Source: a virus (Duplodnaviria > Heunggongvirae > Uroviricota > Caudoviricetes). From it: a stretch of 64,000 nt of DNA. Position 1 is the stretch's first letter. Each line of letters starts with the position of its first letter. Shown here in pieces: positions 13,963 to 33,421 of this stretch. Under the pieces are notes generated by a model. It was given only the letters and a program-made list of their open reading frames with translations. It ran no database searches and had not been told where the DNA came from. The stretch is taken from the IMG/VR virus record IMGVR_UViG_3300047393_000041, positions 1 to 64,000 of that record. One strand, given 5' to 3'. Both the position numbers and the translations under genes were made by a program.

Positions 13963-14213
13963 GAATAGCAATAACACTTATATTATTCATATGTTGTATG
14001 GGTATGTGTATTTATGATGCAGCAAATAACAATATGTTTTGTGTTGTATGGGCAGTTAATTCATTAATGAATCATAATGCTCTCATTAAAGCTTTAGAAA
14101 ATGAAAACGATAATTAAACTATGGAAGTCTTTCTTACAAGAGTTAAGAGAGACTTCACAAAACTGTCCAAGAGAGACAAAATGGTAATTTTAAACAATTA
14201 AACAATTAAAACA

Positions 14214-14471
14214 ATGGCAAAAAATCCAACAAAAGCATCAAAACCAATTGATGACACAATCAAAGATTTGAAAGAATTATTAGAGTATCAAGACAAGGTG
14301 CTAGGAACAGCAGATAAACTGTTGAAGGCTAAAGACAATCTAATAGAAATATTAGAACATCAGAAAGAAGCATACATTAATGAGAACAAAATGTTAACTG
14401 CAGTAATTATTGGATTCACTGCAGTATTAGTTATTGTTGGCTTAGTAAAAGTTGTATCATTAATCCTTTAA
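14214..14471 (+). CDS. hypothetical protein with C-terminal TM helix
   Basis: 85 aa. Preceded by TTAAACAATTAAACAATTAAAACAATGGCAAA, the same element found upstream of recA. Confidence 0.45.
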   Translation: MAKNPTKASKPIDDTIKDLKELLEYQDKVLGTADKLLKAKDNLIEILEHQKEAYINENKMLTAVIIGFTAVLVIVGLVKVVSLIL

Positions 14472-14511
14472 TCAGTAAATTATGTATTATATTATATTTT
14501 CATATTTCTTT

Positions 14512-14649
14512 ATGGGAGGTATGGCATTAGGTAAAGAACAGGAACTGACACTTCTTGGTTGGTTATTATTAATTTTCGCACCATTATCATTTCCTTTATT
14601 ATTAGGATGGATAGTTAAAACAGCTACAGACGATGAGACCGAGAATTAA
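14512..14649 (+). CDS. hypothetical small membrane protein (45 aa; unlisted)
   Basis: Hand-translated MGGMALGKEQELTLLGWLLLIFAPLSFPLLLGWIVKTATDDETEN. Confidence 0.25.
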   Translation: MGGMALGKEQELTLLGWLLLIFAPLSFPLLLGWIVKTATDDETEN

Positions 14650-14808
14650 CAAAGGAACATTAGTTGGATCAACTAATAGACTAAGAGCTATCAAAGCTAG
14701 AAGACTTGTTGTTGAAGTGGTATGGAATTTCAAGAAAGGAATCATATCAGAGAGAACAGTAAACATTAGACAAACATTATTACAATAACAATTTAAATCC
14801 TTAATAAC

Positions 14809-15210
14809 ATGAGCACAAGCATTTTTACATTTGACCACGGTCAAAAGAAATTAGACAAAGCAATTGGTGTAGCACCAGAATATCTTGATGATTTACAAGA
14901 AACTGTAAAGAAGATAATTTGCAGAACAAATGATTCTATAGTTGATGCATTAAGAAAAGATGATGATGAAGATGATGGATGTTCACCAAGTGAATTGGTA
15001 GAATCTGCATTAAATGAGTTTAGTTATTCTCAACTTGTGATACTATCATCATTCTATCTACGTGATAAAATGGAAGAGATTCACAAAGAGATGATCAAAC
15101 GTTCTCTTCAATCAGAAGATGGAGAATTACCTCAAGGATTAAAAGATATTCTAGATAAGATTCGAAATGCAATTCAGAATAAACGGTCTGAAGAGGAGAA
15201 TGAAGATTAA
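14809..15210 (+). CDS. hypothetical acidic protein
   Basis: 133 aa, D/E-rich (DDDEDDGCSPSE). Confidence 0.4.
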   Translation: MSTSIFTFDHGQKKLDKAIGVAPEYLDDLQETVKKIICRTNDSIVDALRKDDDEDDGCSPSELVESALNEFSYSQLVILSSFYLRDKMEEIHKEMIKRSLQSEDGELPQGLKDILDKIRNAIQNKRSEEENED

Positions 15211-15255
15211 AACTAATTGGGAGAGCTGTAATGGCTCTCCTTTTATATCAAAGCT

Positions 15256-16566
15256 ATGAGTAAATATAGATTTAGAACAGAAGAAGAATTTAAAGATATT
15301 GACAGATGGATTAATAGAGTTCATACACCAGAAGGTTGGAATACTACTATGTTAACTCATTTAGGAAAAGATGTAGATGATAAATGGATTAAAATAATAG
15401 AACGTCATATGAATTGTGATGATAGTTTCCAAATTGGAAAATATTGGTATAATTCATGTGATTTTATATTGAACGAATCAGAAATGCCAATAGAACAAAT
15501 TTTAGAACAAATTAATTTAAACAAATCCTTAATAACAAAAGAAAAACAGATGAACAATTTAGAAAACATTACAGAAACAGCTACAGAGAAATTCGTATTC
15601 ATGGACAAAACAGATCAAGTTCTTAACATAGGTTTCAACACCTGCAAGAATATTGTTCTTTATGGTCCAGGAGGACATGGAAAATCAGAGAAGACATTAG
15701 ATTTCCTAAAAGAAAGAGGTATTCAGCCTTACGTTATTACAATGGGTACAGGTATGACCACAGATAGATTATTTGGTGGTATGAATATATTAAAGTTCAA
15801 TGAGACAGGTAAAATAGAATATCTTGTAGAGAATTCATTTATGGATCATGAATATGTTGTATTTGAAGAGATGTTTGATGCTCCTGATTTTATCTTAGAG
15901 CAATTAAAAGATATTCTATCAAGTGGTATATTTAGAAATGGTACACAAGTGTATAACATCAAGACTAAGTTCATCATTTGTTGTACAAATAGAACTCGTG
16001 ATGAATTCTCTAAGAATATGTCATTAAGAGCATTGATGGAGAGATTTCCTCTTGAATTAAATGTTATTTGGGATAATTATACTGAGATCAGTTACAACAG
16101 ATTGTTGGAAAGCAAATTTGGTGTTGATAATGTGGATCCAGTTATTCCATACTTGTTACAAGAGTATGCAAAGAATGGTATTACAATCAGTCCAAGGATT
16201 GCTGTAACAGCTTATTCAGTGTATGATCAATGTGGACCAGAAGCATTAAGTTTTATTGCTGAATTCACAAAGAAACCTGCATTAATAGCTGAAGCTATCA
16301 AAACATTTGAGGGAACAATTAAGTTCAGACAAATGTCAGGAGAACTAACTGATATAATGTCAGCGATAAGTCAAGCTCCATTAACAAATAGAGATGATGA
16401 GACAGCATATAAAATCATTCTTAAGAGTCTTAAAGATAAATTAAGTGATCTTAAATCATTAACAGTTAATGACGATCTTGTAAGCATGCACACACAACTT
16501 GTAAAAGGAGCTGTTGCAGTGATGGATAAATGTCAAAAGAATCTTCAAATAGCAGAATTCATATAA
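15256..16566 (+). CDS. MoxR-like AAA+ ATPase (CobS-like)
   Basis: Walker A LYGPGGHGKSEKT, Walker B/MoxR motif VVFEEMFDAPDFILEQLKDIL (cf. DEINRAPPKTQSALLE), sensor-1 FIICCTNRT. Followed by a VWA protein, the classic CobS/CobT-like pairing seen in large phages. Confidence 0.7.
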   Translation: MSKYRFRTEEEFKDIDRWINRVHTPEGWNTTMLTHLGKDVDDKWIKIIERHMNCDDSFQIGKYWYNSCDFILNESEMPIEQILEQINLNKSLITKEKQMNNLENITETATEKFVFMDKTDQVLNIGFNTCKNIVLYGPGGHGKSEKTLDFLKERGIQPYVITMGTGMTTDRLFGGMNILKFNETGKIEYLVENSFMDHEYVVFEEMFDAPDFILEQLKDILSSGIFRNGTQVYNIKTKFIICCTNRTRDEFSKNMSLRALMERFPLELNVIWDNYTEISYNRLLESKFGVDNVDPVIPYLLQEYAKNGITISPRIAVTAYSVYDQCGPEALSFIAEFTKKPALIAEAIKTFEGTIKFRQMSGELTDIMSAISQAPLTNRDDETAYKIILKSLKDKLSDLKSLTVNDDLVSMHTQLVKGAVAVMDKCQKNLQIAEFI

Positions 16567-17945
16567 TGAAAGATTTATGGGGAAATGAGTATACAGATTA
16601 TAAAGACGAGTATACTCATCCTTCATTCACTCCAAGAAAAAGGAGTAGTGGAGGATGGAAAAGTAAATATGGTAGTGGTGGTTGGTCAAAGAGTAGTTGG
16701 TCTAACTATTCATTTGTAGTTTCGTATGAAGATAATGACGATAGTTTATTCGTTAAAGATCCAGTACACTATTTAACACCAACTGCTGTGGATATCAAGA
16801 AGAAAGTCAATGTAAGAAAACAAGACTCTATTGATATGATTAAAGAACTAGCTCGTGTATGTTATTTCAAAATGATTGATGAAAAAGACTATGTAGCTGA
16901 TGCATTCATTGAAGAAGATCAACAAAGTGATACTCAAAGAGGAAAGAAACAATTGTTCGATAGTATCTATGATCAATATATTCCTGGATTCACACCATTA
17001 GAACAAGCTATATCTATTTATTTAAAACTAAAAGATAACAGTGCTGGTGAGTCTGGTGAGAAAGATGAAGATGAAATGGATATGAAGAAAGGATTAGAGT
17101 TTGATAGAACTCTATATACTGATCCAAGTATCAATGAACAATTGAATCTTAATCCAATGAGTAAAGAGAGATCAATGGAGATATTAAATCTTTTATCTCT
17201 TGTTGGTGAGTTTGGTACTGAATTCAAAGTGGAGAAAGAAATAGATGAGAAAATAGTTGCTAACTCTGATCAATATCTTAAAACAATCATGAGAAGTCAT
17301 GATCAATTAACAATGATTGATCTTTATCAAAGACTTCTTCCTAACTTTGATATTAAATTCTTAACTAAAGACTTAACAGTAAATGTTCCAGTTGATAGAA
17401 AAGAACAGAAGCAAAAGATTATCATTATATTAGATTTCTCTGGTAGTATGGATGATCCTGAAAAACAAATTTGGGTTAACGCTATTCTTATAGATAGATT
17501 CAAATATGTAATGAGAGGAGAAGCTGAAGTATTCTTTAGTTATTTTGTACATGATGCAGATGAATTAGAGTTTCAACATATCACAAACAGAGAAGAGGTT
17601 ATATCATTTTGGCAAACATTCTCTAATGAACCTGATGGTGGATCAACTGAAGTGGCATATATGGTTGAAAGAATTGCTTCTGAAATTAATGAGCATAAGC
17701 TTTGTAACTTAGGTGTAGATTTATTTGAAGAGAAACCAGAGATATTAATTATCAATGATGGACAAGATACAATTAATACAAAAAAGTTCCCTTATAAAGT
17801 GAATGCTATCACATTGATGGAATATAATGATGATTTAAAGAATCTTTGTCTTCAGACTGGTGGTAAACTAATTCAAGTGAATGGAGATCAATCAGTGTAT
17901 TCTCATTCAAAAGAAGCAGGTAAGTTACAAATAACTAAAAAATAA
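16566..17945 (+). CDS. von Willebrand factor A (VWA) domain protein (CobT-like partner of the AAA+ ATPase)
   Basis: MIDAS motif IIIILDFSGSMDD (DxSxS). Start placed at ATG 16566 (TAATG overlap) rather than the longer overlapping ORF start 16530. Confidence 0.65.
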   Translation: MKDLWGNEYTDYKDEYTHPSFTPRKRSSGGWKSKYGSGGWSKSSWSNYSFVVSYEDNDDSLFVKDPVHYLTPTAVDIKKKVNVRKQDSIDMIKELARVCYFKMIDEKDYVADAFIEEDQQSDTQRGKKQLFDSIYDQYIPGFTPLEQAISIYLKLKDNSAGESGEKDEDEMDMKKGLEFDRTLYTDPSINEQLNLNPMSKERSMEILNLLSLVGEFGTEFKVEKEIDEKIVANSDQYLKTIMRSHDQLTMIDLYQRLLPNFDIKFLTKDLTVNVPVDRKEQKQKIIIILDFSGSMDDPEKQIWVNAILIDRFKYVMRGEAEVFFSYFVHDADELEFQHITNREEVISFWQTFSNEPDGGSTEVAYMVERIASEINEHKLCNLGVDLFEEKPEILIINDGQDTINTKKFPYKVNAITLMEYNDDLKNLCLQTGGKLIQVNGDQSVYSHSKEAGKLQITKK

Positions 17946-18015
17946 TTTGTAATTGTTTTGATTATTAATCCCTATGAATTATATTTGTAGGGATTTAATA
18001 CTAATACAAAAAGTT

Positions 18016-18183
18016 ATGATAAATAAAATAGTAGGAATTAGTTTATTAGTTGCAATATTTCTATTTGCAACAATTTGGATATTTAATCACATAAATGCTT
18101 GGGTTGCGATAGGCATTTTTATTGTAGGAATATATATTGCAGCAATAAACATTTTTAAAAACGATAAAAAAACAGAAAAATGA
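18016..18183 (+). CDS. small membrane protein (NfeD-like by context)
   Basis: 55 aa, two hydrophobic helices. ORF-track start 17974 lies inside a hairpin, so start moved to ATG 18016. ATGA overlap with the SPFH gene. Confidence 0.4.
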   Translation: MINKIVGISLLVAIFLFATIWIFNHINAWVAIGIFIVGIYIAAINIFKNDKKTEK

Positions 18184-18983
18184 AAAAATTAGTATTAGTA
18201 TTATTAGGTGTTGCATTATTAACATCATGTGAAAGAGTTGCTCCAAATTATTATGGTGTCCTTATGGAAAATTATGGTAAGAATGGTAAAGAAGATTATA
18301 CCAAACAACAGGGTAAAGTAAATACTATGTCACCAGGAACAGAACTATTTCAAGTACCTGCTTGGGAACAAAGAGGAAATTTTACTGATGATAAAGGACA
18401 AGATAGAGTATTAAGCATCAAAGCAGCTGATAACACAGCATTCTCATCTAAACCTTTATATTCATTTAAAGTTATACCTGCTAATGTTGTTGATGTTGTA
18501 TTTCAAAATTCAAGACTTGGTTCATCAGAGGATTTTATGAATGCTTTACAAGATAATGTATTAGAGCCTAGAATTTATGATATCATTAAAGAAGCTTCTA
18601 GAAATTATACAACAGATCAATTGATGGCTAATGGTGGTTCATTAAGATTTGAGAAATATGTACAAAACATTGTAAAAAGAGAATTTGCAAAATCAGGACT
18701 TGAGTTAATAAGTTTTAGTTTAAATTTAGATTTCTCTAGTAAGGTTAAAGCAAAGATTGATAGTAGAAATGAAGTAAACACTAATGTTTCAGTTCTTGAT
18801 CAACAAATAATTGAACAGAAGAAAAGAAATGAATTAGAATTACTTAAAACTGAACAAGCAATAATTCGTTCTAGAGGATTAACAGATGCTATTTTACAAG
18901 AAAAAGCTGTTAGTCGTTGGAATGGTAAATTACCAACAACAGTTGCTGGTAGTAGTCTTCCTTTTGTTAAAACAATAAAATAA
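18180..18983 (+). CDS. lipoprotein with SPFH (band-7/stomatin/flotillin-like) domain
   Basis: N-terminal signal plus lipobox LLTSC. Central region with SPFH-like features (…YDIIKEASRNYTTDQL…, C-terminal coiled coil EQKKRNELELLKTEQAIIRS). Confidence 0.5.
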   Translation: MKKLVLVLLGVALLTSCERVAPNYYGVLMENYGKNGKEDYTKQQGKVNTMSPGTELFQVPAWEQRGNFTDDKGQDRVLSIKAADNTAFSSKPLYSFKVIPANVVDVVFQNSRLGSSEDFMNALQDNVLEPRIYDIIKEASRNYTTDQLMANGGSLRFEKYVQNIVKREFAKSGLELISFSLNLDFSSKVKAKIDSRNEVNTNVSVLDQQIIEQKKRNELELLKTEQAIIRSRGLTDAILQEKAVSRWNGKLPTTVAGSSLPFVKTIK

Positions 18984-19665
18984 ATAATAAAATAAACCAC
19001 ACATAGAAAGACAAACAGCGATAAAGTTAGAAAATGTAACACTACAAGAAGTGTTATGTTTGTTGAGTAAGATGATAACAGTTAGACTTGCTTTACGGTG
19101 TAGATGTTTACATTAGTCCGTAATTATTATCCCAATCTTGATGGATGTGTGGTTTTATAATAAATAGGTTAAACATTGAATACCTTTAAAGTTGGGCATG
19201 TCACAGATGTGTGTTTAGATGAGTTAAAATCTCAGCTTGTCCTCAAAGTTAGAATTTTGAAAGAGTTTTATGCTTCATAAAGATACTATCAGTAATGGTA
19301 GATGTGTTGTTCCCTTGAGAAAGGAAATATAATAAAATAGTTCGTCATACCCTGAATGTAATAAGGATTGGTGAAAGACTATGTATTATATTTACACAAC
19401 ACAAATGAGTTCTCAGCAAGTAGTTAATAAATAGTGGTTCAAATCCACAGATCTTGAACGTGAAAAATTTAAGAATCGTCTAAGCGGTAAGACAATTAAT
19501 TATGTGACCCTACTCTTATAAGAGGGAAGTATAGTGTAAGTAACGTGCATACTTGTAAGATAAGAGGGTGCTAAATGCTCTCACATAGAATTAAAGGCTC
19601 GAGGCTTCTTCTTTTGAATGAAGCTACGCTACCGAAATGATAAGTGCCCTCACATGAGGGAAATT

Positions 19666-20067
19666 GGGGGTGACTGGTTTTGACAGGTTACTACTAATTG
19701 ATACAATCAGCCCAGAGAGATAACTGGCTAAAACTAAGGTGAATTTTAATAAATGACAACAAAGTAATTTCGTTAGATGTTAACCAAGTTAACGCTAACA
19801 TGAGCAAAGTTTTTTCATTAATTAACTCTAATGTTGAGGAGCTAGAAATGGCTGCATAAGCATTAAATCTGTCAACACTGGCTAGACATAAAGATTGCCA
19901 TAAGAGGTTTGTATGATTCCTTAAAAACATTCTGGTGGATTCGTTTACTTTTACAGTAGACCCTAGAGTTATCCTGTAGACTCTTTAAATAAGTATGGGG
20001 ACAAAAAGCTGTATAAATTGTATTAATGAAAGTAATTTGGACGGGAGTTCGACTCTCCCCACCTCCA
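19666..20067 (+). ncRNA. ssrA: tmRNA (SsrA-like transfer-messenger RNA)
   Basis: 5' GGGGGTGACTGGTTTTGACAGG and 3' GGACGGGAGTTCGACTCTCCCCACCTCCA give a 7-bp acceptor stem with the G3:U70 pair. T-arm GGGAG/TTCGACT/CTCCC. Internal tag-like frame ends ...NSNVEELEMAA then TAA at 19857-19859. No CCA encoded. Confidence 0.7.
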
Positions 20068-20143
20068 CGATGTTGGATAGCTACCAAATGAACTTAGTGG
20101 TAACAACGGAAAACCTAAGAGAGATTAACAAAAACTCCGTACA

Positions 20144-20239
20144 GATTGAGTGTACCAAATGGCGAAAGGTTATTCCAGAACTGGATAGAGGCACAAGAAA
20201 ATAAGTCCTACATTACAGGTTCGATTCCTGTCTCAATCA
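20144..20239 (+). tRNA. tRNA-like element (perfect acceptor and T-arm, non-canonical body)
   Basis: GATTGAG (20144-20150) pairs perfectly with CTCAATC (20232-20238). Discriminator A at 20239. T-arm ACAGG/TTCGATT/CCTGT is canonical. The 64 nt between them do not fold into standard D/anticodon arms by eye. Total 96 nt. Confidence 0.3.
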
Positions 20240-20483
20240 CATCTGTTGTTTGATCTTAGCACTAGGAAAACAACAAGCAATTGGACAAAGCTAAGTGTCA
20301 TGAATTGCCCTGTAACAGCTCAGTGTTACCAGATAGAATAGGTTTAAGATCAAGTATGTGAAGTTCTATCAAATAAAAGAAGTGTAGCCTGATTGGTAAA
20401 GGCAGCAAGTAATGATGGGAAGTGGTTCGATTCCTCACCTTCTTTTAACAATTGACATCTCCCAAGGGAGAAAGTCCTATTAA

Positions 20484-20512
20484 AGCCTCTATTAACATAG
20501 AGGCTTTTCTTA
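20484..20512 (+). terminator. rho-independent terminator
   Basis: AGCCTCTA-ttaaca-TAGAGGCT hairpin followed by TTTTCTTATT. Closes the RNA-gene region. Confidence 0.55.
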
Positions 20513-20543
20513 TTATGTATTAATCCTTAATAACTATAAAAAC

Positions 20544-20690
20544 ATGAAGACAATTAAATTATTACCAACTGAGTTCTTTCAGTTCAGACAATTAGCATTT
20601 GCAATGAGTATTGCATTTGCCTGTTCAATTGCACATGGTGTGTATATTGTAGAAGCCAATATAAACCAACTAGAGAAGTTGGGTTATTAA
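20544..20690 (+). CDS. hypothetical small protein (48 aa; unlisted)
   Basis: Hand-translated MKTIKLLPTEFFQFRQLAFAMSIAFACSIAHGVYIVEANINQLEKLGY. Followed by hairpins. Confidence 0.25.
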   Translation: MKTIKLLPTEFFQFRQLAFAMSIAFACSIAHGVYIVEANINQLEKLGY

Positions 20691-20754
20691 GGGGGCAAGA
20701 GGGCTCTTGTCTAACAACAAGGGCCTTATTGTTTTAATCATTAATAAATAAAAT

Positions 20755-21024
20755 ATGAAAAACATACACATATTATTAGCATTGTTATTTGTTTCTTGTA
20801 CAGAATCTAAATACACAAATATTGGTCAAGAAATTATTGATGGTAAAGTTTCAGCTTCTGCAGTAATAGTAAACCGCAGGGGAGTAAAACAATATAGATT
20901 TTGGATACAAAACGCAACGGAAACAAAAGAAATTGAACTGCCTACTATCTATAAAGAAAAATGGAAAGTAGGAGATAGTTGTTTATTAATCATTGAAAAA
21001 TATAAAGAAAATGAAACTAAGTAA
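20755..21024 (+). CDS. putative lipoprotein
   Basis: 89 aa. Signal peptide with lipobox LFVSC followed by TESK. Confidence 0.45.
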   Translation: MKNIHILLALLFVSCTESKYTNIGQEIIDGKVSASAVIVNRRGVKQYRFWIQNATETKEIELPTIYKEKWKVGDSCLLIIEKYKENETK

Positions 21025-21814
21025 AAACATACACGTATTACCAACAAAAAAACTAAGTAATTTATTATTATGTATAAAAAGTTATGTGGAACATAAAGAT
21101 ACACCTGAAGAAAATTCAGATAATAAAGGTGATTTTAGATTAGGTTGTGGTAAATATGCTAGTAAAGTATTTTACAAACCACATCATATGTACATCACTT
21201 CTGATGAATGCATTAAAGAAGATGATTGGTTATTAATTATTGATGATTTTGAAACTTATGTGCACAAACATAAAGGGGACAATTTACCAACTACTTATTG
21301 GAAAATCATCCTAACAACAGACCAAAACTTAATTGCTGATGATGTACAAGCTATTGATGATGAGTTCTTAGAATGGTTTGTTAATAATCCAAATTGTGAA
21401 AGTGTTGAGATTAAACCTTTTTGTAAAAAATTAACTTGCAAAAATAAAGAATGTAATGTTTGTTGTCAAGAATTAAATTATAAACTATTAATTCCAAAAG
21501 AAGAACCTAAACAAACAGTTCAAGAATATGAACAACAAGGTTTAGAAAAGTATTCACATGAACTTAAACAAGAAACACTTGAAGAAGCTGCTATAGATTC
21601 TAAAAAACGTTACATTAATGAAACTGCAAAAATAATTGCATATAGAGAGTTCATTGAAGGTGCTAAATGGCAACAACAAAATAGTTATAATGAGGAAGAG
21701 ATTAGAAACGCTATTGACTATGGAGCAGAGTTAGGTCTTTCAAATAATATTGGAAATTCTTTTGAATGGACAAAAAGAAAAAACGAATGGTTTGAAATAA
21801 ATAAAAAGAAATAA
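21011..21814 (+). CDS. hypothetical Cys-rich protein with C-terminal family-A module (ETLEEA...WQQQNSYNEEE...WFEINKKK)
   Basis: Start moved to ATG 21011. C-terminal ~100 aa is paralogous to 21894, 25236, 25491 and 25780 ORFs. Confidence 0.45.
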   Translation: MKLSKNIHVLPTKKLSNLLLCIKSYVEHKDTPEENSDNKGDFRLGCGKYASKVFYKPHHMYITSDECIKEDDWLLIIDDFETYVHKHKGDNLPTTYWKIILTTDQNLIADDVQAIDDEFLEWFVNNPNCESVEIKPFCKKLTCKNKECNVCCQELNYKLLIPKEEPKQTVQEYEQQGLEKYSHELKQETLEEAAIDSKKRYINETAKIIAYREFIEGAKWQQQNSYNEEEIRNAIDYGAELGLSNNIGNSFEWTKRKNEWFEINKKK

Positions 21815-21893
21815 TTATGGACATTATCTTCTTAATAGTATTTATGTTTGCAATTATGGTTAACGAAAATAGAAACATTTAAAAAGAAATAAA

Positions 21894-22250
21894 ATGGAAA
21901 AAGAAACACTTGAAGAAGGTTTTATTAGAACTATTATTCCACTTGATTATACAGAAGCTGATTTTGCATCTTTTAAACTTGGTATTAAATATCAACAAGA
22001 AAAAGATAGAGATTTTTATTTTAAATATATAAAATCGGAAAAAGACTTTCAAATGCCAAGAATGGATAAGTTAGGTATCAATACTACTGGACAAATATTC
22101 GAACAAATGGTAACTTCATTGATTCATTTAGCAGAAAGAAGTTATAGTGAGGAAGAAGTTAAAGAATTATTAGGAGACTTTTTTTATGACCATATTAACT
22201 CTCAAAATGCTAACATTAACGATTGGTTCGAACAATTTAAAAAGAAATAA
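21894..22250 (+). CDS. paralog family A protein (MEKETLEE...RSYSEEE...WFEQFKKK)
   Basis: 118 aa. Shares N-terminal xKETLEE and C-terminal SYSEEE/WFxxFKKK motifs with four other ORFs. Confidence 0.45.
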   Translation: MEKETLEEGFIRTIIPLDYTEADFASFKLGIKYQQEKDRDFYFKYIKSEKDFQMPRMDKLGINTTGQIFEQMVTSLIHLAERSYSEEEVKELLGDFFYDHINSQNANINDWFEQFKKK

Positions 22251-22254
22251 AATT

Positions 22255-22434
22255 ATGGAAGAAAAACTTAAAGAATTAATTGATGAATGGAGAAATAGAC
22301 AACACTTGTATGAAGATATGGCTGAAAGATATAAAGATAATCCTCGTAACAATGCGAAATATGTATACAAAGCATTGGGCACAAGAGATTGTTGGAAAGA
22401 ACTATTAACATTAATAGAAAGCAAAGATGAGTAA
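22255..22434 (+). CDS. hypothetical protein
   Basis: Start moved to internal ATG 22255 (MEEKLKELIDEW...) to avoid 60-nt overlap. Confidence 0.3.
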   Translation: MEEKLKELIDEWRNRQHLYEDMAERYKDNPRNNAKYVYKALGTRDCWKELLTLIESKDE

Positions 22435-22663
22435 AGAAATAGAATTAGGACTAACTGTTGGAGGAACATACATTACAGTAAGTGGATGTTATTATCCAGA
22501 TGAAGATGCTATCATGTATGATAGTAACATGGAAGGTTATCCAGGTTGTGCTGCAGAGTTTGAGTTACAATCAGTTCAAGTAGATGGTACAGAAATCATT
22601 GATTTGATTAGTGATGCCATATTTGATGAAATAGTAGATAAAGTATTAGAAAACCAACGTTAA
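22427..22663 (+). CDS. hypothetical protein
   Basis: 78-aa ORF. Confidence 0.35.
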   Translation: MSKEIELGLTVGGTYITVSGCYYPDEDAIMYDSNMEGYPGCAAEFELQSVQVDGTEIIDLISDAIFDEIVDKVLENQR

Positions 22664-22674
22664 AATTTAGAGTT

Positions 22675-22908
22675 ATGAAAATAGTAAACGGTAGATGGCA
22701 GGATGATAATAACAATCCTGTAGATAATTTTAATGTATCTCAGCTATTAGAGCTTGGAGAGAAAGTTACAAATGTATATGGTAAAGATATTAGTTATAGT
22801 AGAATAGAATTAGTTTCTGCTATTAAATCTCTTACACCTAAACAAGAATCTGATCTTGCTTATGTATTAAGTCAAGAAGGTGCGATTGCTAGACTAGCAG
22901 GATATTAG
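22675..22908 (+). CDS. hypothetical protein
   Basis: 77-aa ORF. Confidence 0.35.
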   Translation: MKIVNGRWQDDNNNPVDNFNVSQLLELGEKVTNVYGKDISYSRIELVSAIKSLTPKQESDLAYVLSQEGAIARLAGY

Positions 22909-22910
22909 TT

Positions 22911-23183
22911 ATGAATAGTCAAGAGAATGTAGGAAGAAAAGTGAAAGGTTTTGAATTTAAAGGTAAGCCAACTTTTGTGAATCCAATGAACAAACACATT
23001 GGTAAAATTGGAATAATAACACATAACATGGATGATTGTTATTCAGTACGATTTGCTAGTGGTGAGGCTTATAATTATCCCTATCCTGAAATACTTGATC
23101 ATTTAGTTGATAAAGAACCTGAAATAGAATTAAGCCTTGAGGAACTTGTAAATAATGTTAAAGTTTTAATCTCAAAAATTTAG
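22911..23183 (+). CDS. paralog family B protein (1 of 3)
   Basis: 90 aa. GRKVKGFEFKG...EPEIELSLEELVNNVKVLISKI. Tandem with 23187 and 23469. Confidence 0.45.
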   Translation: MNSQENVGRKVKGFEFKGKPTFVNPMNKHIGKIGIITHNMDDCYSVRFASGEAYNYPYPEILDHLVDKEPEIELSLEELVNNVKVLISKI

Positions 23184-23186
23184 ATT

Positions 23187-23465
23187 ATGGAAGATCTTAT
23201 AGGAAAGAAAGTAATAGGTTTTGCTTTTAAAGACAATCCAGTTGTTGGATGGAATGATCATATGAATAAATATGTCGGAGAGATTGGAGAAATAACAAAA
23301 TTTTGTGGCAATAAAACTGGATCATATTATGTTAAATTTACTAGTAATGCTTATTGGTATCCAGCTATTGGAATAAAAGCACAATTTATTGAAAAAGAAC
23401 CTGAAGTAGAACTAAGCCTTGAAGAACTCATCAACAATGTTAAAGGTTTAATATCAAAAATTTAG
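23187..23465 (+). CDS. paralog family B protein (2 of 3)
   Basis: 92 aa. Same architecture, C-terminus EPEVELSLEELINNVKGLISKI. Confidence 0.45.
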   Translation: MEDLIGKKVIGFAFKDNPVVGWNDHMNKYVGEIGEITKFCGNKTGSYYVKFTSNAYWYPAIGIKAQFIEKEPEVELSLEELINNVKGLISKI

Positions 23466-23468
23466 ATT

Positions 23469-23741
23469 ATGAAGAATGATCTTATAGGAAGAAAAGTGAA
23501 AGGTTTTAAATTTAGAACTACTACAGCTGTTGCATATGATAAGTATATGTCAAAACATATTGGTGAAATTGGTACAATTACAGAAGTTGATGGAAAAACT
23601 TGTTATGTTGAATTTCCTGATAATGCTTGGTGGTATCCACTTTTGAGAACAGTTGAGAATTTAATTGAAGAAGAACCTGAAATAGAGGTGAGTCTTGATG
23701 AACTTATTAATAACGTTAAAAATTTAATATCAAAAATATGA
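23469..23741 (+). CDS. paralog family B protein (3 of 3)
   Basis: 90 aa. C-terminus EPEIEVSLDELINNVKNLISKI. Confidence 0.45.
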   Translation: MKNDLIGRKVKGFKFRTTTAVAYDKYMSKHIGEIGTITEVDGKTCYVEFPDNAWWYPLLRTVENLIEEEPEIEVSLDELINNVKNLISKI

Positions 23742-24043
23742 AGTTAGAAGAACAACAAGAAATAGTTAGAACAGTGGTGTCTGACTATTTCGACAAATAT
23801 GCAACAGAATCAATACCTTTACATTATATAATGGCAGAGAGCGAACATATCATTTATATTGGTACATCAGTATTATGTACTAAATGGAATGTTGGTTATC
23901 CAGGAGGAGATTTTGTCAAATCTATAGTTGATAATGATTTAGCTGGAGCATTTAGCAGAGCTGATCATATTAATCAACATTGTATTAGATTTTATGTAAT
24001 GTTAATGCATAACGTAGAAGCACCTACAATCTTATTTCAATAA
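23738..24043 (+). CDS. hypothetical protein
   Basis: 101-aa ORF. Confidence 0.4.
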   Translation: MKLEEQQEIVRTVVSDYFDKYATESIPLHYIMAESEHIIYIGTSVLCTKWNVGYPGGDFVKSIVDNDLAGAFSRADHINQHCIRFYVMLMHNVEAPTILFQ

Positions 24044-24045
24044 TT

Positions 24046-24456
24046 ATGGAAAAAGAATTTGTGTCTTACGAAATTGCATCAGCTTTAAAAGAATTAGGAT
24101 TTGAGGAACCTTGTATAGCTTTATATAAGTTTAAGAAATTTAAGTATAATATTAAGGACTGTAATGAACTGGTTATATTTTATAATAGAGATGGGAATGT
24201 TATCTCTTACTTAGCACCACTTTACCAACAAGCATTTAGATGGTTTAGAGAGAAGTATAAATTACAATGTTATCCAATACTAGATACAGAAGGTATTTAT
24301 TTGTGTCTTTTTTCTGACGGAATAGGATCAGGGTATTTGCTTAAAAATGGAGATTATGGTCACTGGTCAGATGAACATTTAGAATTTAATACCTACGAAG
24401 AAGCAGAACTTGAATGTCTTAAAAAATTAATAGAAATTGTAAAAGAACAGAAATAG
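24046..24456 (+). CDS. paralog family C protein (1 of 3)
   Basis: 136 aa. MEKEFVSYEIASALKELGFEEPCIA...QAFRWFREKY...TYEEAELECLKKLIEIVKEQK. Confidence 0.45.
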   Translation: MEKEFVSYEIASALKELGFEEPCIALYKFKKFKYNIKDCNELVIFYNRDGNVISYLAPLYQQAFRWFREKYKLQCYPILDTEGIYLCLFSDGIGSGYLLKNGDYGHWSDEHLEFNTYEEAELECLKKLIEIVKEQK

Positions 24457-24845
24457 TGGAAAAAGAATTTATACCTTACGAAATTGCATTAGCTTTAAAA
24501 GAATTAGGATTTGATGAACCTTGTATTGCGTTTTATAATGGTAAATTTTTAGATTTTAAAATTACCAGTAACGGTATAGAAAGTCCTTATATAGACTCAA
24601 CTATGAAGATAGGGCAATGTGTAAATGCACCAACATTATCACAAGCATTTAGATGGTTTAGAGAGAATTATTTTATTTACCCATCTATAATACAATTGAG
24701 AGGTTGGGTAAATAGTTATAAAATAATAAAATGGGATTCAAGCTGTGATGCAACAACTGTTTATGATAGCAATAATTACCAAACCTACGAAGAAGCAGAA
24801 CTTGAATGTTTAAAGAAATTAATAGAAATATGCAAGAAGAACTAA
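24456..24845 (+). CDS. paralog family C protein (2 of 3)
   Basis: 129 aa. Near-identical N- and C-terminal motifs to 24046 ORF. Confidence 0.45.
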   Translation: MEKEFIPYEIALALKELGFDEPCIAFYNGKFLDFKITSNGIESPYIDSTMKIGQCVNAPTLSQAFRWFRENYFIYPSIIQLRGWVNSYKIIKWDSSCDATTVYDSNNYQTYEEAELECLKKLIEICKKN

Positions 24846-25255
24846 TTACATTCGAAACAGCTAAATTAGCTAAAGAAAAAGGATTTGATGAAATATGTTA
24901 TTATTTACATCATCCTTTGTATGGTGTAGTAGATAATAGTAAATATCATAAGAACTCTAAACTTAATGTAAGTGATAAGGATAAAACTGAATACATCACA
25001 GCTCCAACTCAATCACTTCTTCAAAAATGGTTAAGAGAAGTTCATAAAAGTGTTGTTACCATAAGAGTATACAATAATGGGGAAGAATGGGATGAAACAG
25101 AGTATCGAGTTAGTGTTTCTGAATTTAAACATTTTACTACACATGATTCTTTTGTAAAATCTGATTTTTCTACTTACGAAGAAGCATTAGAGATTGGGTT
25201 ACAAGAAGCACTTAAATTAATAGAAATAGTAAAAGATGAAAAAAGAAACAATTGA
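24830..25255 (+). CDS. paralog family C protein (3 of 3, more divergent)
   Basis: Start moved to ATG 24830 (MQEELITFETAKLAKEKGFDE...). Ends ...TYEEALEIGLQEALKLIEIVKDEK. Confidence 0.4.
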   Translation: MQEELITFETAKLAKEKGFDEICYYLHHPLYGVVDNSKYHKNSKLNVSDKDKTEYITAPTQSLLQKWLREVHKSVVTIRVYNNGEEWDETEYRVSVSEFKHFTTHDSFVKSDFSTYEEALEIGLQEALKLIEIVKDEKRNN

Positions 25256-25484
25256 AGAAGCTTCTAATAATTATAGTAAAGGTATTATTGAGAATCATAT
25301 TAAAGTATTACATTATGTATGTTTCATTGATGGCGCTAAATGGCAAAAAGAAAGAAGTTATAGTGAGGAAGATATAAGAGAGGCATTTAGACAAGGTCAA
25401 GATAATATGAAATATGATGAAATGTATGGTTTTGATACTGAATTAACTGAGCAAGATTGGTTTAATAAATTTAAAAAGAAATAG
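25236..25484 (+). CDS. paralog family A protein
   Basis: 82 aa. MKKETIEEA...AKWQKERSYSEEDIREAF...WFNKFKKK. Confidence 0.45.
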   Translation: MKKETIEEASNNYSKGIIENHIKVLHYVCFIDGAKWQKERSYSEEDIREAFRQGQDNMKYDEMYGFDTELTEQDWFNKFKKK

Positions 25485-25490
25485 TAAATT

Positions 25491-25799
25491 ATGAAAAAAG
25501 AAACACTTGAAGAAGCTGCTGAAAGATTAGTAAAAGAAACTACATTATATGGAAGCCAAGAAGCTAGTATTGGTAGTTCTGCTAGAAGTTATTTCGAAAC
25601 AGAATTAAGATGCGTATTGTTAGGTATGCAATGGCAACAAGAAAGAAGGTATAGTGAGGAAGAATTGAAGTCAGCTTTTAAAATAGGATTTAGTATTGGT
25701 TATGGTAGTCCTGTGAATGGATTAGACAGCAAAGATGAAACTTGTGAAGTATGGTTTGAACAAAATAAAAAGAAACAAGATGAACACAGTAGATATTGA
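25491..25799 (+). CDS. paralog family A protein
   Basis: 102 aa. MKKETLEEAA...MQWQQERRYSEEELKSAF...WFEQNKKK. Confidence 0.45.
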   Translation: MKKETLEEAAERLVKETTLYGSQEASIGSSARSYFETELRCVLLGMQWQQERRYSEEELKSAFKIGFSIGYGSPVNGLDSKDETCEVWFEQNKKKQDEHSRY

Positions 25800-26022
25800 A
25801 AAACTAAACCAACTAATAGCAAGAACTGATATTAGTGGTAATGATAAAGTAAGATGGCTTACTGATTTTATAGATGGTAGAGAATTTGAACAACAAGAAA
25901 ATAGCTATAATGAGCAAGAGATGTTTAATCTTTTAATGGATTTCTTTTTAGAAAAAGATAGACAATATAAACTTAATCCAGTATGTGTTGCAGAATGGTT
26001 TAATAAATTTAAAAAGAAATAA
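25780..26022 (+). CDS. paralog family A protein (divergent)
   Basis: Start moved to ATG 25780. ...EFEQQENSYNEQEMFNLL...AEWFNKFKKK. Confidence 0.4.
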   Translation: MNTVDIEKLNQLIARTDISGNDKVRWLTDFIDGREFEQQENSYNEQEMFNLLMDFFLEKDRQYKLNPVCVAEWFNKFKKK

Positions 26023-26023
26023 G

Positions 26024-26386
26024 ATGAAAAAAGAAAAGAAATTAACTAGTCACATAGCAGATGTAATTGCTAAACAAAAAGAAGTTACTAAAGAAGAAAT
26101 TTATGTTGATGGTGCTCATGAATATGATTATGCCAAAGATGATACAGATGTTGATTTAACTATTCATACATTATATTACAGTGATTCTGCAGAATGGTCA
26201 GATCGTGTAAAAAGTAAAATAGCGTTAGAACTAGTAGATAATGGAAATGGTGTATTAATAAAACAATGGAAGTTAGAAGAAGAAATAGATTATCTTCAAT
26301 TGCAACAATTGTATATTTTATTAAAATTAACTGATGATGGTTCTGTATATGAAATATCAAAACCAGCAATTAGAACAATATTCTAA
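26024..26386 (+). CDS. hypothetical protein
   Basis: Start moved to ATG 26024 (MKKEKKLTSH...). Confidence 0.4.
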   Translation: MKKEKKLTSHIADVIAKQKEVTKEEIYVDGAHEYDYAKDDTDVDLTIHTLYYSDSAEWSDRVKSKIALELVDNGNGVLIKQWKLEEEIDYLQLQQLYILLKLTDDGSVYEISKPAIRTIF

Positions 26387-26856
26387 TGTGGTATCCAGCT
26401 GAAATAGTATTGAAAAGTTATCTTCCTCTTGAATTAGAAGAGGGTATGCTTTTTATCAATAGGATATCTGTTGGTATAATGGAACCATACATTGAATTAT
26501 GGGAGCTTGAAGAGATTCCTGAAGATATGGATGCATTTATGGCATTAAATGGTGCTCCAGTGAATCTAATGATTGTAATTGATGATTATCCAGAAGAAAT
26601 AATAGTAACTGAAGATCAAATTGGTTGGTGGGATGAAGGAGATCATACTGATGAGCTAAGAGATATACTATTAGATGATATCAATATGGTATTAAGAGAA
26701 TTCAATGGAGAATTATCAATTGATATTGATGATGAAGAAGAAGATAACATAGTACCAACATTATTTGAAAATAAAGTTATTCTAGCATTTGATCAAGAAG
26801 AAAATGATGAGCTAGAAGACTGGGATGTTACAACAAGTGAAGGATTAGAAGACTAA
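26386..26856 (+). CDS. hypothetical highly acidic protein (candidate DNA mimic)
   Basis: 156 aa, roughly 30% D+E with long acidic runs (IDIDDEEEDN, EENDELEDWD). Confidence 0.45.
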   Translation: MWYPAEIVLKSYLPLELEEGMLFINRISVGIMEPYIELWELEEIPEDMDAFMALNGAPVNLMIVIDDYPEEIIVTEDQIGWWDEGDHTDELRDILLDDINMVLREFNGELSIDIDDEEEDNIVPTLFENKVILAFDQEENDELEDWDVTTSEGLED

Positions 26857-26860
26857 AGCT

Positions 26861-27406
26861 ATGAGTGAAAGAAAAAAAACTTACATTAATTCCAGCAATA
26901 AACATGCTGTAAGAGAATTTATAATCCAAAGATTTCAATTTGAATCTGTAGTTGGATTAGCAGGTCCAGACATCAATGAGTATCTAGCATATCTAGAAGC
27001 CAAAGGATGTAAAGAATTTGAAATTTATGAGACTAACTCACAAGTGGCATTGCAACAACTATCTAAAATTAGATCAACATCTAAAATAGCGTTGATATGT
27101 GGTGATATTCTCAAAGCAAATCCAGATAAACAAAATGTATTATTTGATCTTGATTTTTGTGGATCGGTTAGATTCTTAACAGAACATATTGCTAAGTTCA
27201 AAAAGAACTTCATTATGACATTCAGTTATAGAATTGGGCTACAAGAAACAATTGATACATTTTTTAAAGCTAGGAAAGAGAAAGTGTTGAATAGTGTTGA
27301 TCATGTATCACCTATGCCTCACACAATTTACACAACAAAAAAAGGAAACTATTTATTTATCAAGTATTTCGACACATCAGCTATGTGTTGTTTTGCTAAA
27401 ATTTAG
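26861..27406 (+). CDS. hypothetical protein (possible Rossmann-fold/methyltransferase-like; weak)
   Basis: 181 aa. VVGLAGPDI ... ALICGDIL ... VLFDLDFCG loosely resemble SAM-MTase motifs I/IV. Not convincing. Confidence 0.35.
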   Translation: MSERKKTYINSSNKHAVREFIIQRFQFESVVGLAGPDINEYLAYLEAKGCKEFEIYETNSQVALQQLSKIRSTSKIALICGDILKANPDKQNVLFDLDFCGSVRFLTEHIAKFKKNFIMTFSYRIGLQETIDTFFKARKEKVLNSVDHVSPMPHTIYTTKKGNYLFIKYFDTSAMCCFAKI

Positions 27407-27411
27407 AAATT

Positions 27412-28248
27412 ATGCAAAAAACATTAAACCAACTGCAGTTACATGCAGTTAACCTCAGTGAGATAATTTTAAATAATACTCACGATCCAGATTTTTGTGA
27501 TCATTTGTTAAACAATTGGATTAGAAGTCATCTTATGTATGGATCAAATAAAGAATTTATAGCCACAGCCTTAGCTCATGTATTTGAAGAAGACTATGCT
27601 TTAACATTGAGAAATGTTAATATTATTAATGATTCTTTACCACAAGTTAAACTTGAACCTGTAATGACTATTACACATAATTATACACCAGATGAAATTA
27701 GAATAATTGCAAATGATCTTATACAAAAAGTTCCTGTTAAGAAAATTGCTAGAACTAGAAGTGCAGAGTTTAATAGAAATGGATCTGGATTAATTATTAA
27801 AGTTAGACAAATTAAAAGAGCATTATCAAAAGGATTTTCAATCCAAGAAATAATAGATAAAAAAACAACCGAAAAATATAGAAAAGAACCAGAAGCTATG
27901 AGCCAATTAAAATTTTATACAAAAGAAGAATATGCAATTATCAAAACTGCTATTGAATCAGGAGAACCTATTGCTAGTATAGTAAGAAGATTATCAGTTG
28001 AATTTAATAGAGGAAAACTTGGTCTTTATCAAAAAATACATACAATAAAAAAGAATACTCCTGTATTGCATACGTGGGAAGGTTCTAAAAGATTACCATC
28101 TGTTAAAAAAGAGAAATTAAACTTTGAACCAGATGTTATTATTCAAGAACCTGCAGAGATAGGTATAGAAGTACCACATGGTATGACGTTTGAGGGTAAG
28201 CCTAAGAAAATTATGTTACACTCTGATCATTTCAGAATATACTTTTAA
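27412..28248 (+). CDS. hypothetical protein with internal sequence repeats
   Basis: 278 aa. Two copies of an ~35-aa unit (…RTRSAEFNRNGSGLIIKVRQIKRALSKGFSIQEIIDK… and …VRRLSVEFNRGKLGLYQKIHTIKKN…). Confidence 0.45.
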   Translation: MQKTLNQLQLHAVNLSEIILNNTHDPDFCDHLLNNWIRSHLMYGSNKEFIATALAHVFEEDYALTLRNVNIINDSLPQVKLEPVMTITHNYTPDEIRIIANDLIQKVPVKKIARTRSAEFNRNGSGLIIKVRQIKRALSKGFSIQEIIDKKTTEKYRKEPEAMSQLKFYTKEEYAIIKTAIESGEPIASIVRRLSVEFNRGKLGLYQKIHTIKKNTPVLHTWEGSKRLPSVKKEKLNFEPDVIIQEPAEIGIEVPHGMTFEGKPKKIMLHSDHFRIYF

Positions 28249-28249
28249 T

Positions 28250-28498
28250 ATGGAGTTAATAGCATCAAATAAACACACTAAGGAAAGAAAGATAGCTGAA
28301 ATAATTGTAAGCAAGTTAAAATCTACAGCTGCAGCATTTGAATCTAAAGATCCTACACATAGAAATGGTATTAGATATACTATATCAAAGAAAGTGTATG
28401 ATAATACGATTAACATGGAGTTTGATAATAGAAATATATCACATGTAGATAGAATGGTGATAACACAATTCATCAATCGAAGACTTAGAGCAATATAA
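28250..28498 (+). CDS. hypothetical protein
   Basis: Start moved to ATG 28250 (MELIASNKH...). Followed by terminator. Confidence 0.35.
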   Translation: MELIASNKHTKERKIAEIIVSKLKSTAAAFESKDPTHRNGIRYTISKKVYDNTINMEFDNRNISHVDRMVITQFINRRLRAI

Positions 28499-28507
28499 TA
28501 AAAATTG

Positions 28508-28539
28508 TTAGGGATGTGTAGTGCATCCCTAATCTTTTT
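28508..28539 (+). terminator. rho-independent terminator
   Basis: TTAGGGATG-tgtagtg-CATCCCTAA followed by TCTTTTT. Confidence 0.55.
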
Positions 28540-28570
28540 AGTTATCTTTGTAACCCTTTAATTTAAAACT

Positions 28571-28858
28571 ATGAAAAAAGTAATTATTTATGACACAACA
28601 AAAGCATATACAAAAAAACAGTATTATGTAAAAGGTTTTAGTGTCTATAGAAACGATACTCCAATAAGTTCTTTTAGTAGCAATTCAAATGCAGTTAATC
28701 ATGCTAAAGAGTTGAATGAAAAGTTTGGAGATATAGAAGCTTATGATTTATTAAATAAAATTAGAGATGAGATAACTTTATATGAAGATGTAGAGTTTAC
28801 ACCAGAAGTTATTATTATATCAATTAAAGCAATGTTAGATAGTAGAGAAAGGTTATAA
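28571..28858 (+). CDS. hypothetical protein
   Basis: 95-aa ORF immediately upstream of DNA polymerase. Confidence 0.4.
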   Translation: MKKVIIYDTTKAYTKKQYYVKGFSVYRNDTPISSFSSNSNAVNHAKELNEKFGDIEAYDLLNKIRDEITLYEDVEFTPEVIIISIKAMLDSRERL

Positions 28859-28882
28859 AACTAACTATTATAATTTAAAACT

Positions 28883-30841: not shown

Positions 30842-31092
30842 TGAAAATTAACAGAACAAACATTACAGAGCATCTCATTGAATATCAATTAGGTATAATT
30901 GGTAAAACAATAAAAGAAGTAGAGGAAGATGATCAATGGTTTTATAATAACACTATGACACCAGATCAGCATATTAAATTAAAAGCTTATGCTATCCCTC
31001 TATTAAAGAAAATATTTAAATTTAACAAAGCTAAAGCAGAATCAACATTTGGTTGGTTTGATTGCCAATTCGGATTAAGAATCAAATTTTAA
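30841..31092 (+). CDS. hypothetical protein
   Basis: 83-aa ORF, ATGA overlap with polymerase stop. Confidence 0.4.
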   Translation: MKINRTNITEHLIEYQLGIIGKTIKEVEEDDQWFYNNTMTPDQHIKLKAYAIPLLKKIFKFNKAKAESTFGWFDCQFGLRIKF

Positions 31093-31110
31093 CATTAAAA
31101 ATTAAAAATT

Positions 31111-31338
31111 ATGACATTATTTATTATTATTGGAGTGATTGCTATTATTTTAGTTATAGCAATGAATATACAAGTAGAAGATCCACACAAAGAAGAATCT
31201 AAAGAAAGTGATTTTAATATTGATCCTAAGATAGAAGACTTTGGTATGGATCCTGCTGATGTAGAACCTACACCTATTGCACCAAAGCCAAAGAAGAAAT
31301 ACAAAAGAAAACCAAAGACCAACAAACCAATTCAATAA
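31111..31338 (+). CDS. hypothetical membrane protein with basic C-terminal tail
   Basis: 75 aa. N-terminal TM helix, C-terminal PKPKKKYKRKPKTNK. Confidence 0.4.
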   Translation: MTLFIIIGVIAIILVIAMNIQVEDPHKEESKESDFNIDPKIEDFGMDPADVEPTPIAPKPKKKYKRKPKTNKPIQ

Positions 31339-33406: not shown

Positions 33407-33421
33407 TTAAAAACACAAATT

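Follow-up and report, generated by a model that had tools for sequence, protein, structure and literature searches.

Sequence evidence for a phage-borne one-piece tmRNA gene with a long tag reading frame

The subject of this report is a gene for transfer-messenger RNA (tmRNA, encoded by ssrA) found in a 64,000-nucleotide stretch of viral DNA (Caudoviricetes; positions 1 to 64,000 of IMG/VR record IMGVR_UViG_3300047393_000041), which is called the window below. The gene is of the one-piece type, occupies 19666-20067 on the plus strand (402 nt), and does not encode the terminal CCA. The match to the tmRNA covariance model, the compensatory changes in the stems, and the constraint on the tag frame support the view that a complete tmRNA gene of this type is present at this locus in a phage genome. 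The RNA is likely to be functional and to work in trans-translation together with the SmpB, the alanyl-tRNA synthetase (AlaRS), and the EF-Tu of the host. Phage tmRNAs have been recorded before, and the type of gene is therefore already known; what might be new is a feature of the family to which it belongs, namely, the long conserved tag. For the window itself, the outcome is an annotation that is solid and ordinary, namely, that of a tmRNA gene, the tag frame of which is now defined.

The gene and its paired ends

The initial annotation of this DNA placed a phage tmRNA at these positions and named in advance, among the results that would count against it, a low score with the tmRNA covariance model and the inability of the two ends to join in helix 2. 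On both counts, the identification held. ARAGORN called a tmRNA at 19666-20068 (+), the sole tRNA-type gene that it found in the window, and Rfam model RF00023 matched 19666-20070 over its entire length (model positions 1-374 of 374), scoring 81.4 bits, where the gathering score is 47 (E=5e-30). The 24-mer at the 3' end of the tmRNA is present once in the window and is absent from 100 shuffles. A two-piece (permuted) tmRNA was also considered and was rejected, since RF04321 gave only 12.8 bits against 47 and the parts of the gene follow the order of the one-piece model.

The tRNA-like domain is indeed as it had first been read: the acceptor strands GGGGGTG and CACCTCC pair with the G3:U70 wobble between them, the T arm is in its place (Table 1), and no CCA is encoded, the discriminator being followed by CGA. 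To put the last point in context, a set of host-type tmRNAs was collected by back-translating the tag GENNYALAA with its stop codon and scanning IMG/VR with the result, which yielded 32 tmRNAs (18 of them distinct), mostly at the edges of prophage contigs. CCA is encoded neither in any of the 86 complete genes of the phage family nor in the 18 distinct host-type Bacteroidota genes; its absence is therefore a trait typical of the phylum and not a peculiarity of the phage.

The stems were evaluated by covariation. The 86 complete genes were extracted from related loci, the 64 distinct ones were aligned, and the acceptor stem, the T arm, the three segments of helix 2, and the short stem at the position of pseudoknot 1 (PK1), as found in the window, were projected onto this alignment. 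Standard pairs filled 93.9% of the cells, as opposed to 41-47% when the 3' partners were slid by 1-3 columns, and compensatory changes were found in 28 of the 40 stem pairs of the projected helices; the observed values were reached in 0 of 500 shuffles. At acceptor pair 3, G:U is kept in all 64 relatives, and acceptor pairs 5 and 6 covary. In the T stem, each of the five pairs has compensatory changes and 100% of the cells are paired. Helix 2, which joins both ends, forms and covaries across the family: 20 of its 24 pairs, distributed over three segments, show compensatory changes, with 84-100% of the cells paired. Since the stems covary across 64 relatives and the 3' 24-mer never appears in shuffles, the match is not due to chance.

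The tag reading frame

The initial annotation reported an internal frame that runs ...NSNVEELEMAA up to a TAA stop codon, and this frame is present in the sequence. It also stated that the resume codon could not be fixed by eye; this part no longer stands, since the Rfam alignment and the 64 relatives, which all agree, now fix it as GAC (Table 1). In the ARAGORN call, the tag begins with a GUU codon and has 26 residues; the GAC lies nine codons further upstream and gives a tag of 34 codons. In the window, the resume codon is 11 nt past the PK1 block, a conserved 31-nt sequence that the window gene shares exactly with the tmRNA genes of Flavobacterium phage FpV4 and Cellulophaga phage phi40:1, and in all 64 genes a codon starting with G is found 10-12 nt past this block (GGC in 34, GGA in 17, and GAC in 13). 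The length of the tag in these 64 genes varies from 24 to 49 codons, the commonest length being 35.

The tags of the family have a common core, Q..ANM..V..[LI][LI], in which the "invariant" Met is present in 63/64. This Met, the AUG of the ANM motif, could suggest another explanation, according to which the frame encodes an ordinary small protein that starts there, with the tRNA-like ends serving only for processing or stability. Translation in Bacteroidota does not depend on a Shine-Dalgarno sequence, which would make such a start easier to accept. The stretch upstream of the Met is difficult to reconcile with this explanation: its first codon corresponds in position to the resume codon of host genes, it exists in seven lengths (7, 8, 11, 12, 14, 15, or 19 codons from the resume codon to the Met), its insertions and deletions are multiples of three, and it invariably keeps the frame, with no stop codon in 63/63 genes, whereas only 19 and 7 genes are open over this stretch in the other two frames. 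Moreover, the G3:U70 pair and the discriminator A are strictly kept, which implies that charging matters. A small protein is therefore considered very improbable.

Over its whole length, the tag is open in its own frame in 64/64 genes and is never open in either of the other two. Where the residue is invariant, the codon is not: the Ala of the core is encoded by GCT (48), GCC (5), GCA (4), or GCG (1), and the Asn by AAC (39) or AAT (19), while at the [LI] position the Leu found in 47 of 58 sequences uses TTA (17), TTG (14), CTA (12), and CTT (4). Variation is greatest at third codon positions. The ratio of nonsynonymous to synonymous differences (pN/pS) in the core is 0.52 in frame compared to 1.01 and 1.28 in the shifted frames, a value that corresponds to only moderate purifying selection, with synonymous differences near saturation. 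As judged from these comparisons, the tag frame is evolving as a translated peptide.

The C-termini of the tags usually consist of a hydrophobic residue followed by Ala-Ala. The Ala-Ala end is found in 59/64 tags; AVAA is the ending of 34/64, with ELAA, EMAA, LIAA, and EIAA among the rest, and the tag in the window ends in EMAA. This suggests that a protease of the ClpXP type, which recognizes C-terminal degrons, still receives the tagged products. The conserved part of the tag upstream of this end would probably, by analogy, be recognized by an adaptor, a protease, or another partner. A comparison of the tag with solved proteins gave only chance-level matches (E of 0.4 or worse). In the literature, no description of a long conserved tag was found, and flavobacterial phage tmRNAs were mentioned only as counts.

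Directly past the stop codon, in the part of the gene between the tag and helix 2 where pseudoknots PK2-PK4 would be expected, is a single candidate H-type pseudoknot (Table 1). By eye, compensatory differences can be seen in loci L012, L017, L025, and L015 (L numbers denote related viral loci, with L001 being FpV4, KT876724, and L002 being phi40:1, KC821612). In this segment, MAFFT sets three homologues one column out of register, and the pairs there were judged by eye. A brute-force search for pseudoknots after the tag gave results no better than those from shuffles, structures of such sizes arising by chance in A+T-rich sequence. The assignment of a pseudoknot to this segment is therefore tentative.

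Table 1. Coordinates of the tmRNA features and of the neighbouring features in the window
Feature	Position	Strand	Basis
5' end GGGGGTGACTGGTTTTGACAGG	begins 19666	+	sequence
Acceptor stem, 5' strand GGGGGTG	19666-19672	+	pairs with CACCTCC 20060-20066, giving G3:U70
Helix 2, 5' strand: CAGGTTACT 19684-19692, ATTGATACAAT 19697-19707, CAGC 19708-19711	19684-19711	+	Rfam alignment, covariation
PK1-position block: CAGAGAGATAACTG 19713-19726, 5-nt spacer, AACTAAGGTGAA 19732-19743; short stem CCAG/CTGG	19713-19743	+	comparison
Resume codon GAC	19755-19757	+	Rfam consensus resume codon, high posterior probability; family comparison
Tag frame DNKVISLDVNQVNANMSKVFSLINSNVEELEMAA, 34 codons and stop codon TAA 19857-19859	19755-19859	+	family comparison
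Candidate H-type pseudoknot: stem 1 AATC+TGTC with GACA+GATT, stem 2 TGGC with GCCA	19866-19900	+	comparison by eye
Helix 2, 3' strand: GCTG 20008-20011, ATTGTATTAAT 20017-20027, AGTAATTTG 20031-20039	20008-20039	+	Rfam alignment, covariation
T arm GGGAG/TTCGACT/CTCCC	20043-20059	+	sequence; covariation in 5/5 pairs
Discriminator A	20067	+	sequence; A in 86/86 family genes
First intrinsic-terminator-like hairpin downstream of the tmRNA	20482-20507	+	possible end of the RNA transcription unit
MoxR-like AAA+ ATPase	15256-16566	+	Pfam bpMoxR, AAA_5
471-aa protein	16530-17945	+	no family match
SPFH/Band-7 protein	18180-18983	+	-

Distribution, origin, and function

The family is found in phages. 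In a blastn comparison of the locus with isolate phages, matches were confined to the 5' 100 nt and were found in 36 records, comprising 29 Flavobacterium phages of the FpV4 type and 7 Cellulophaga phages of the phi40:1 type. A scan of IMG/VR with the PK1 block found at least 119 viral contigs, while a scan of 185,579 bacterial and archaeal species genomes (one genome per species) gave one match, to a 4.9 kb contig of a Flavobacteriales metagenome-assembled genome; it follows that the family is carried by phages and not by host chromosomes. The relatives score 55-101 bits with RF00023, a range that was found in 12 further members sampled. The initial annotation considered a virus-borne tmRNA to be uncommon, in agreement with the 2.3% of phage genomes reported in one survey (PMC9004378).

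The tmRNA of FpV4 (Fipvunavirus) is located at 3001-3415 of L001 and scores 58.2 bits with RF00023, although ARAGORN missed it; that of phi40:1 (Callevirus, the type to which phage Calle also belongs) is at 3001-3362 of L002 and scores 87.6 bits. These tmRNAs have the PK1 block of the window gene in identical form, along with its resume context, and their long tags likewise contain the Q..ANM core (GNTNNSVVSLEDNAQVEANMNMAFSLIREDVAVAA in FpV4 and GNNTNAVNAQIEANMEAVNAILNLEVAVGV in phi40:1). They are only around 77% identical to the window gene over the 5' 100 nt, and the phages that carry them differ from the window phage in having other virion types and genomes of 72-92 kb. In both of the GenBank records inspected, KT876724 and KC821612, the tmRNA is unannotated, and in that of phi40:1 a hypothetical coding sequence on the opposite strand, gp041, overlaps part of it. 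Judging from these two records, the annotation of isolate flavobacterial phages overlooks tmRNA genes. Counts of tmRNAs have been given for Cellulophaga phage Calle and Maribacter phage Panino (PMC8776804, PMC11590407). The family is thus present in pairs that can be cultivated, FpV4 with Flavobacterium psychrophilum and phi40:1 or Calle with Cellulophaga. Moreover, the tag is distinct from that of the host and is itself under selection, so that tagged proteins should be separable by mass spectrometry and the core could be mutated.

In L036, L098, and L115, the tmRNA gene spans 1017-1099 nt, with the T loop split just ahead of ...CGAATCTCCCCACCTCCA. The insert in the tmRNA gene of L036 (around 3495-4524, minus strand) is a group I intron (RF00028, 94.8 bits at 3998-4221). 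The tmRNA gene of the window, unlike those of these three loci, is free of introns.

The window contains genes for a portal protein, the large subunit of terminase, DNA polymerase, rIIA, and rIIB, along with a DnaB-like helicase, a NAPRTase, a RecA/UvsX-like recombinase, PhoH, ThyX, a dNMP kinase, MazG, and HNH endonucleases. The large terminase (5584-7608, minus strand) is crAss-like: its best match is to Leptolyngbya phage Lbo-JY46 (40% amino-acid identity), followed by 31% identity to Cellulophaga phages phi4:1 and phi17:2 and 26-31% to gut crAss-like phages. The window is from a crAss-like phage, probably of a Bacteroidota host, and the Leptolyngbya host label of the nearest terminase is unexpected for a genome that otherwise resembles those of Bacteroidota phages. 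No near-identical DNA relative of the region 14000-34000 was found in the isolate phage collection. Genes of the NAD-salvage or PRPP type are also present, the NAPRTase being at 33422-34891, and the coding strand and the GC skew both switch near 10 kb and 58.8 kb. On the basis of the window alone, the phage is most likely lytic.

Since tmRNA genes are common sites of integration, the gene could in principle be a copy of the host ssrA or an attP-type fragment, which either restores ssrA on integration or results from an imprecise excision and which has no role in lytic growth. Such an origin has been offered for other phages (PMC11590407, PMC9004378), and host-type tmRNAs are indeed found at the edges of many IMG/VR prophage contigs. 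The window gene does not have the features of such a leftover: it is full length, its PK1 and its tag are unlike those of every host-type sequence examined, and its G+C content of 36% fits the phage (around 31% in the window) and not the 39-51% of the host-type genes. Its 3' end is not repeated in the window, where a duplication of the att type was sought, and no integrase was found among the approximately 70 open reading frames (ORFs) scanned. The near-absence of the family from bacterial genomes, together with its covariation and coding constraint, also argues against this origin, which we regard as unlikely in the extreme.

To our knowledge, there is no experimental answer to the question of why some phages carry their own tmRNA. 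On the basis of established tmRNA biology, the RNA would be cut from a longer transcript and would receive its CCA from a host enzyme. The host AlaRS would then charge it with alanine, and the host SmpB and EF-Tu would deliver it to ribosomes stalled on broken or stop-less mRNAs. The ribosome would move to the tag frame, add the alanine and the 34-residue tag, terminate at the TAA, and be recycled. The benefit to the phage would probably be an extra capacity for ribosome rescue during infection.

Such a mechanism depends on SmpB. The E. coli SmpB sequence, the identity of which was confirmed by Pfam (194 bits), was used as a query. Neither the 64-kb window nor the 1.13 Mb of related loci yielded an SmpB. 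With the same query, 68 isolate phage records were found, including those of Prevotella phages but none of Flavobacterium or Cellulophaga phages. These results point to a reliance on the host SmpB, which is presumed for the family as a whole. They could also be taken to mean that the RNA acts as a decoy or inhibitor that binds the SmpB, the EF-Tu, or the ribosomes of the host and so blocks or diverts host trans-translation. Indeed, in the absence of a phage SmpB from these searches, the RNA must compete for that of the host; the tRNA-like domain is the best conserved part; and a decoy has been suggested in the case of mycobacteriophage DS6A, where the molecule consists of little beyond the tRNA-like domain (PMC4131195). 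A pure decoy needs no reading frame, whereas the frame here is open in 64/64 genes and changes its length in frame, and both the synonymous variation at invariant residues and the degron-like ...AA end would be left unexplained. The decoy is therefore improbable, and a tmRNA active in trans-translation is the preferred reading.

Several points nevertheless weigh against this preferred reading. The window is only part of the phage genome, and an SmpB could be encoded elsewhere in it. In the short PK1 stem, the closing pair covaries, and only 3-4 bp can be assigned, with the second stem of the pseudoknot not identified; moreover, the PK1 block was the search pattern that defined the family, which makes it invariant by construction and deprives it of any value as covariation evidence, and the sample of the family is biased towards this block. 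The length of the gene varies from 301 to 474 nt in the 86 complete genes, and in the Rfam alignment the middle third has a low posterior probability, with a mean accuracy of 0.54. The moderate strength of the selection on the core, given above, belongs with these points. Finally, the proposal of an amphipathic helix in the tag core was not borne out and was dropped, since its hydrophobic moment was reached by 24% and 46% of shuffled tags.

Flanking RNAs, neighbouring genes, and known tmRNAs

The tmRNA lies in a 1.7 kb stretch without long ORFs. Upstream of it, at around 19273-19522 (+), is another structured RNA, with further conserved blocks at 19037-19072 and 19128-19187. It comprises the near-invariant segments CCTTGAGAAAGG, AATGAGTTCTCAGCAAGTAG, and ACGTGACCCTACTCTTA, between which are hairpins of variable sequence. 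RNAalifold, applied to 31 sequences, showed compensatory changes in 13 of the 21 predicted pairs, and a hairpin loop, TTGAGAA, is complementary to TTCTCAG, which would allow a pseudoknot. The core motif of this RNA is present on 103 IMG/VR viral contigs; of the 84 loci in which the sequence extends far enough downstream, a tmRNA follows it in only 13-14. Its commonest neighbour, on the downstream side, is a homologue of the ORF at 20993-21814. Neither this RNA nor the flanks of the tmRNA matched a credible Rfam family at E up to 10.

The flanks also contain elements that resemble tRNAs. Three copies of the T-loop motif GGTTCRAWTCC are present in the window, compared to 0.06 expected by chance, all of them on the plus strand and in the flanks of the tmRNA, and there is a T-loop hairpin at around 19431-19449. 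Two tRNA-like genes, at 20144-20240 (+) and 20376-20445 (+), have good acceptor and T arms and abnormal anticodon regions; ARAGORN, in its default and intron modes, and the Rfam tRNA model called no tRNA in the flanks. In the first of these genes, an acceptor stem of 7 bp and a T arm are accompanied by a long extra arm and an anticodon loop of 8 nt. In its homologues, the acceptor and T stems are kept or compensated, while the middle differs: those in L036 and L089 form cloverleaves of 70 nt in which the anticodon loop has 6 nt (47-48 bits with the Rfam tRNA model), and that in L066 has an insertion of around 70 nt. These genes could possibly be processing punctuation, tRNAs of a frameshift or non-decoding type, or genes in decay.

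The block at 19037-19072 (+) is 97% identical in L008 and L014 and contains TATGTTTG at 19055-19062, in agreement with the Bacteroidota -7 promoter consensus TAnnTTTG. On the plus strand, no terminator-like site was reported from 18900 to 20482, where the first hairpin of this type begins. Since there is none between the block and this hairpin, a single transcript may contain the structured RNA together with the tmRNA and the tRNA-like genes. Just past the hairpin is a small ORF of 49 codons, 20545-20694 (+), encoding MKTIKLLPTEFFQFRQLAFAMSIAFACSIAHGVYIVEANINQLEKLGY, and more than 28 related loci share the DNA around it (approximately 20480-20760) at 75-89% identity.

The genes for the MoxR-like ATPase, the 471-aa protein, and the SPFH protein are directly upstream of the RNA cluster, and homologues of them are present in 12-21 related loci. 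A search for a universal protein partner encoded beside the tmRNA ended in rejection of the idea: the clustering of ORFs gave no family common to all lineages. The ATPase and the 471-aa protein beside it are found again in no more than 18-21 of 122 loci, as would fit synteny among close relatives, and other genes flank the tmRNAs of FpV4 and phi40:1. In E. coli, the FtsH protease is regulated by SPFH proteins; a link between the SPFH neighbour and tag-directed proteolysis is pure speculation.

Another possibility, which is rather doubtful, is that these phages redirect the proteins that are rescued. In this case, the core of the tag would be a docking site for a dedicated factor of the host or of the phage, and the tmRNA would be part of a processed RNA operon together with the unclassified pseudoknotted RNA and the tRNA-like RNAs with their 6- or 8-nt anticodon loops. 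The factor could be an adaptor, an alternative protease, or a sorting machine, and the fate of trans-translated proteins would then no longer be that of proteins carrying the 10-residue tag of the host.

Among known systems, other tmRNAs borne by phages provide the first comparison. In the groups named below, the tmRNA genes are usually beside tRNA genes and have been proposed to sustain translation during infection (PMC4131195, PMC7162821, PMC9004378). The window gene resembles the tmRNAs of the cluster C mycobacteriophages (Bxz1, Catera, and others) and Bacillus phage G (PMC4131195) in being carried by a phage, as it does those of huge phages (PMC7162821), some of which also carry SmpB, and that of pelagiphages such as Melnitz, which is two-piece (permuted) and linked to a riboswitch; in all these cases, the hosts belong to other phyla.

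The second comparison is with the host-type tmRNAs of Bacteroidota, the tag of which, GETNYALAA in Bacteroides, serves experimentally as a strong degron (bioRxiv 10.1101/2025.03.18.644028). These are also one-piece molecules, with the same 5' sequence of the tRNA-like domain (GGGGnTGACnGGTTTTGACAG), the G3:U70 pair, the resume context TTAAnT|GGC, the ...AA C-terminus, and no encoded CCA. They differ in having a PK1 of a different, classical sequence, a higher G+C content (39-51% compared to 36% in the window gene), and, above all, short tags: GENNYALAA and GETNYALAA have 9 codons, whereas the tag in the window has 34 and those of the phage family have 24-49, exceeding the host length by a factor of three to four.

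In its length, the phage tag is closer to that of Mycoplasma, where tmRNA tags of around 27 residues are degraded by Lon and where the long tag accompanies the loss of ClpXP. There is no sequence similarity between the two, but the Mycoplasma tag is likewise far longer than the usual 10 or so residues, and its extra length carries information for the protease.

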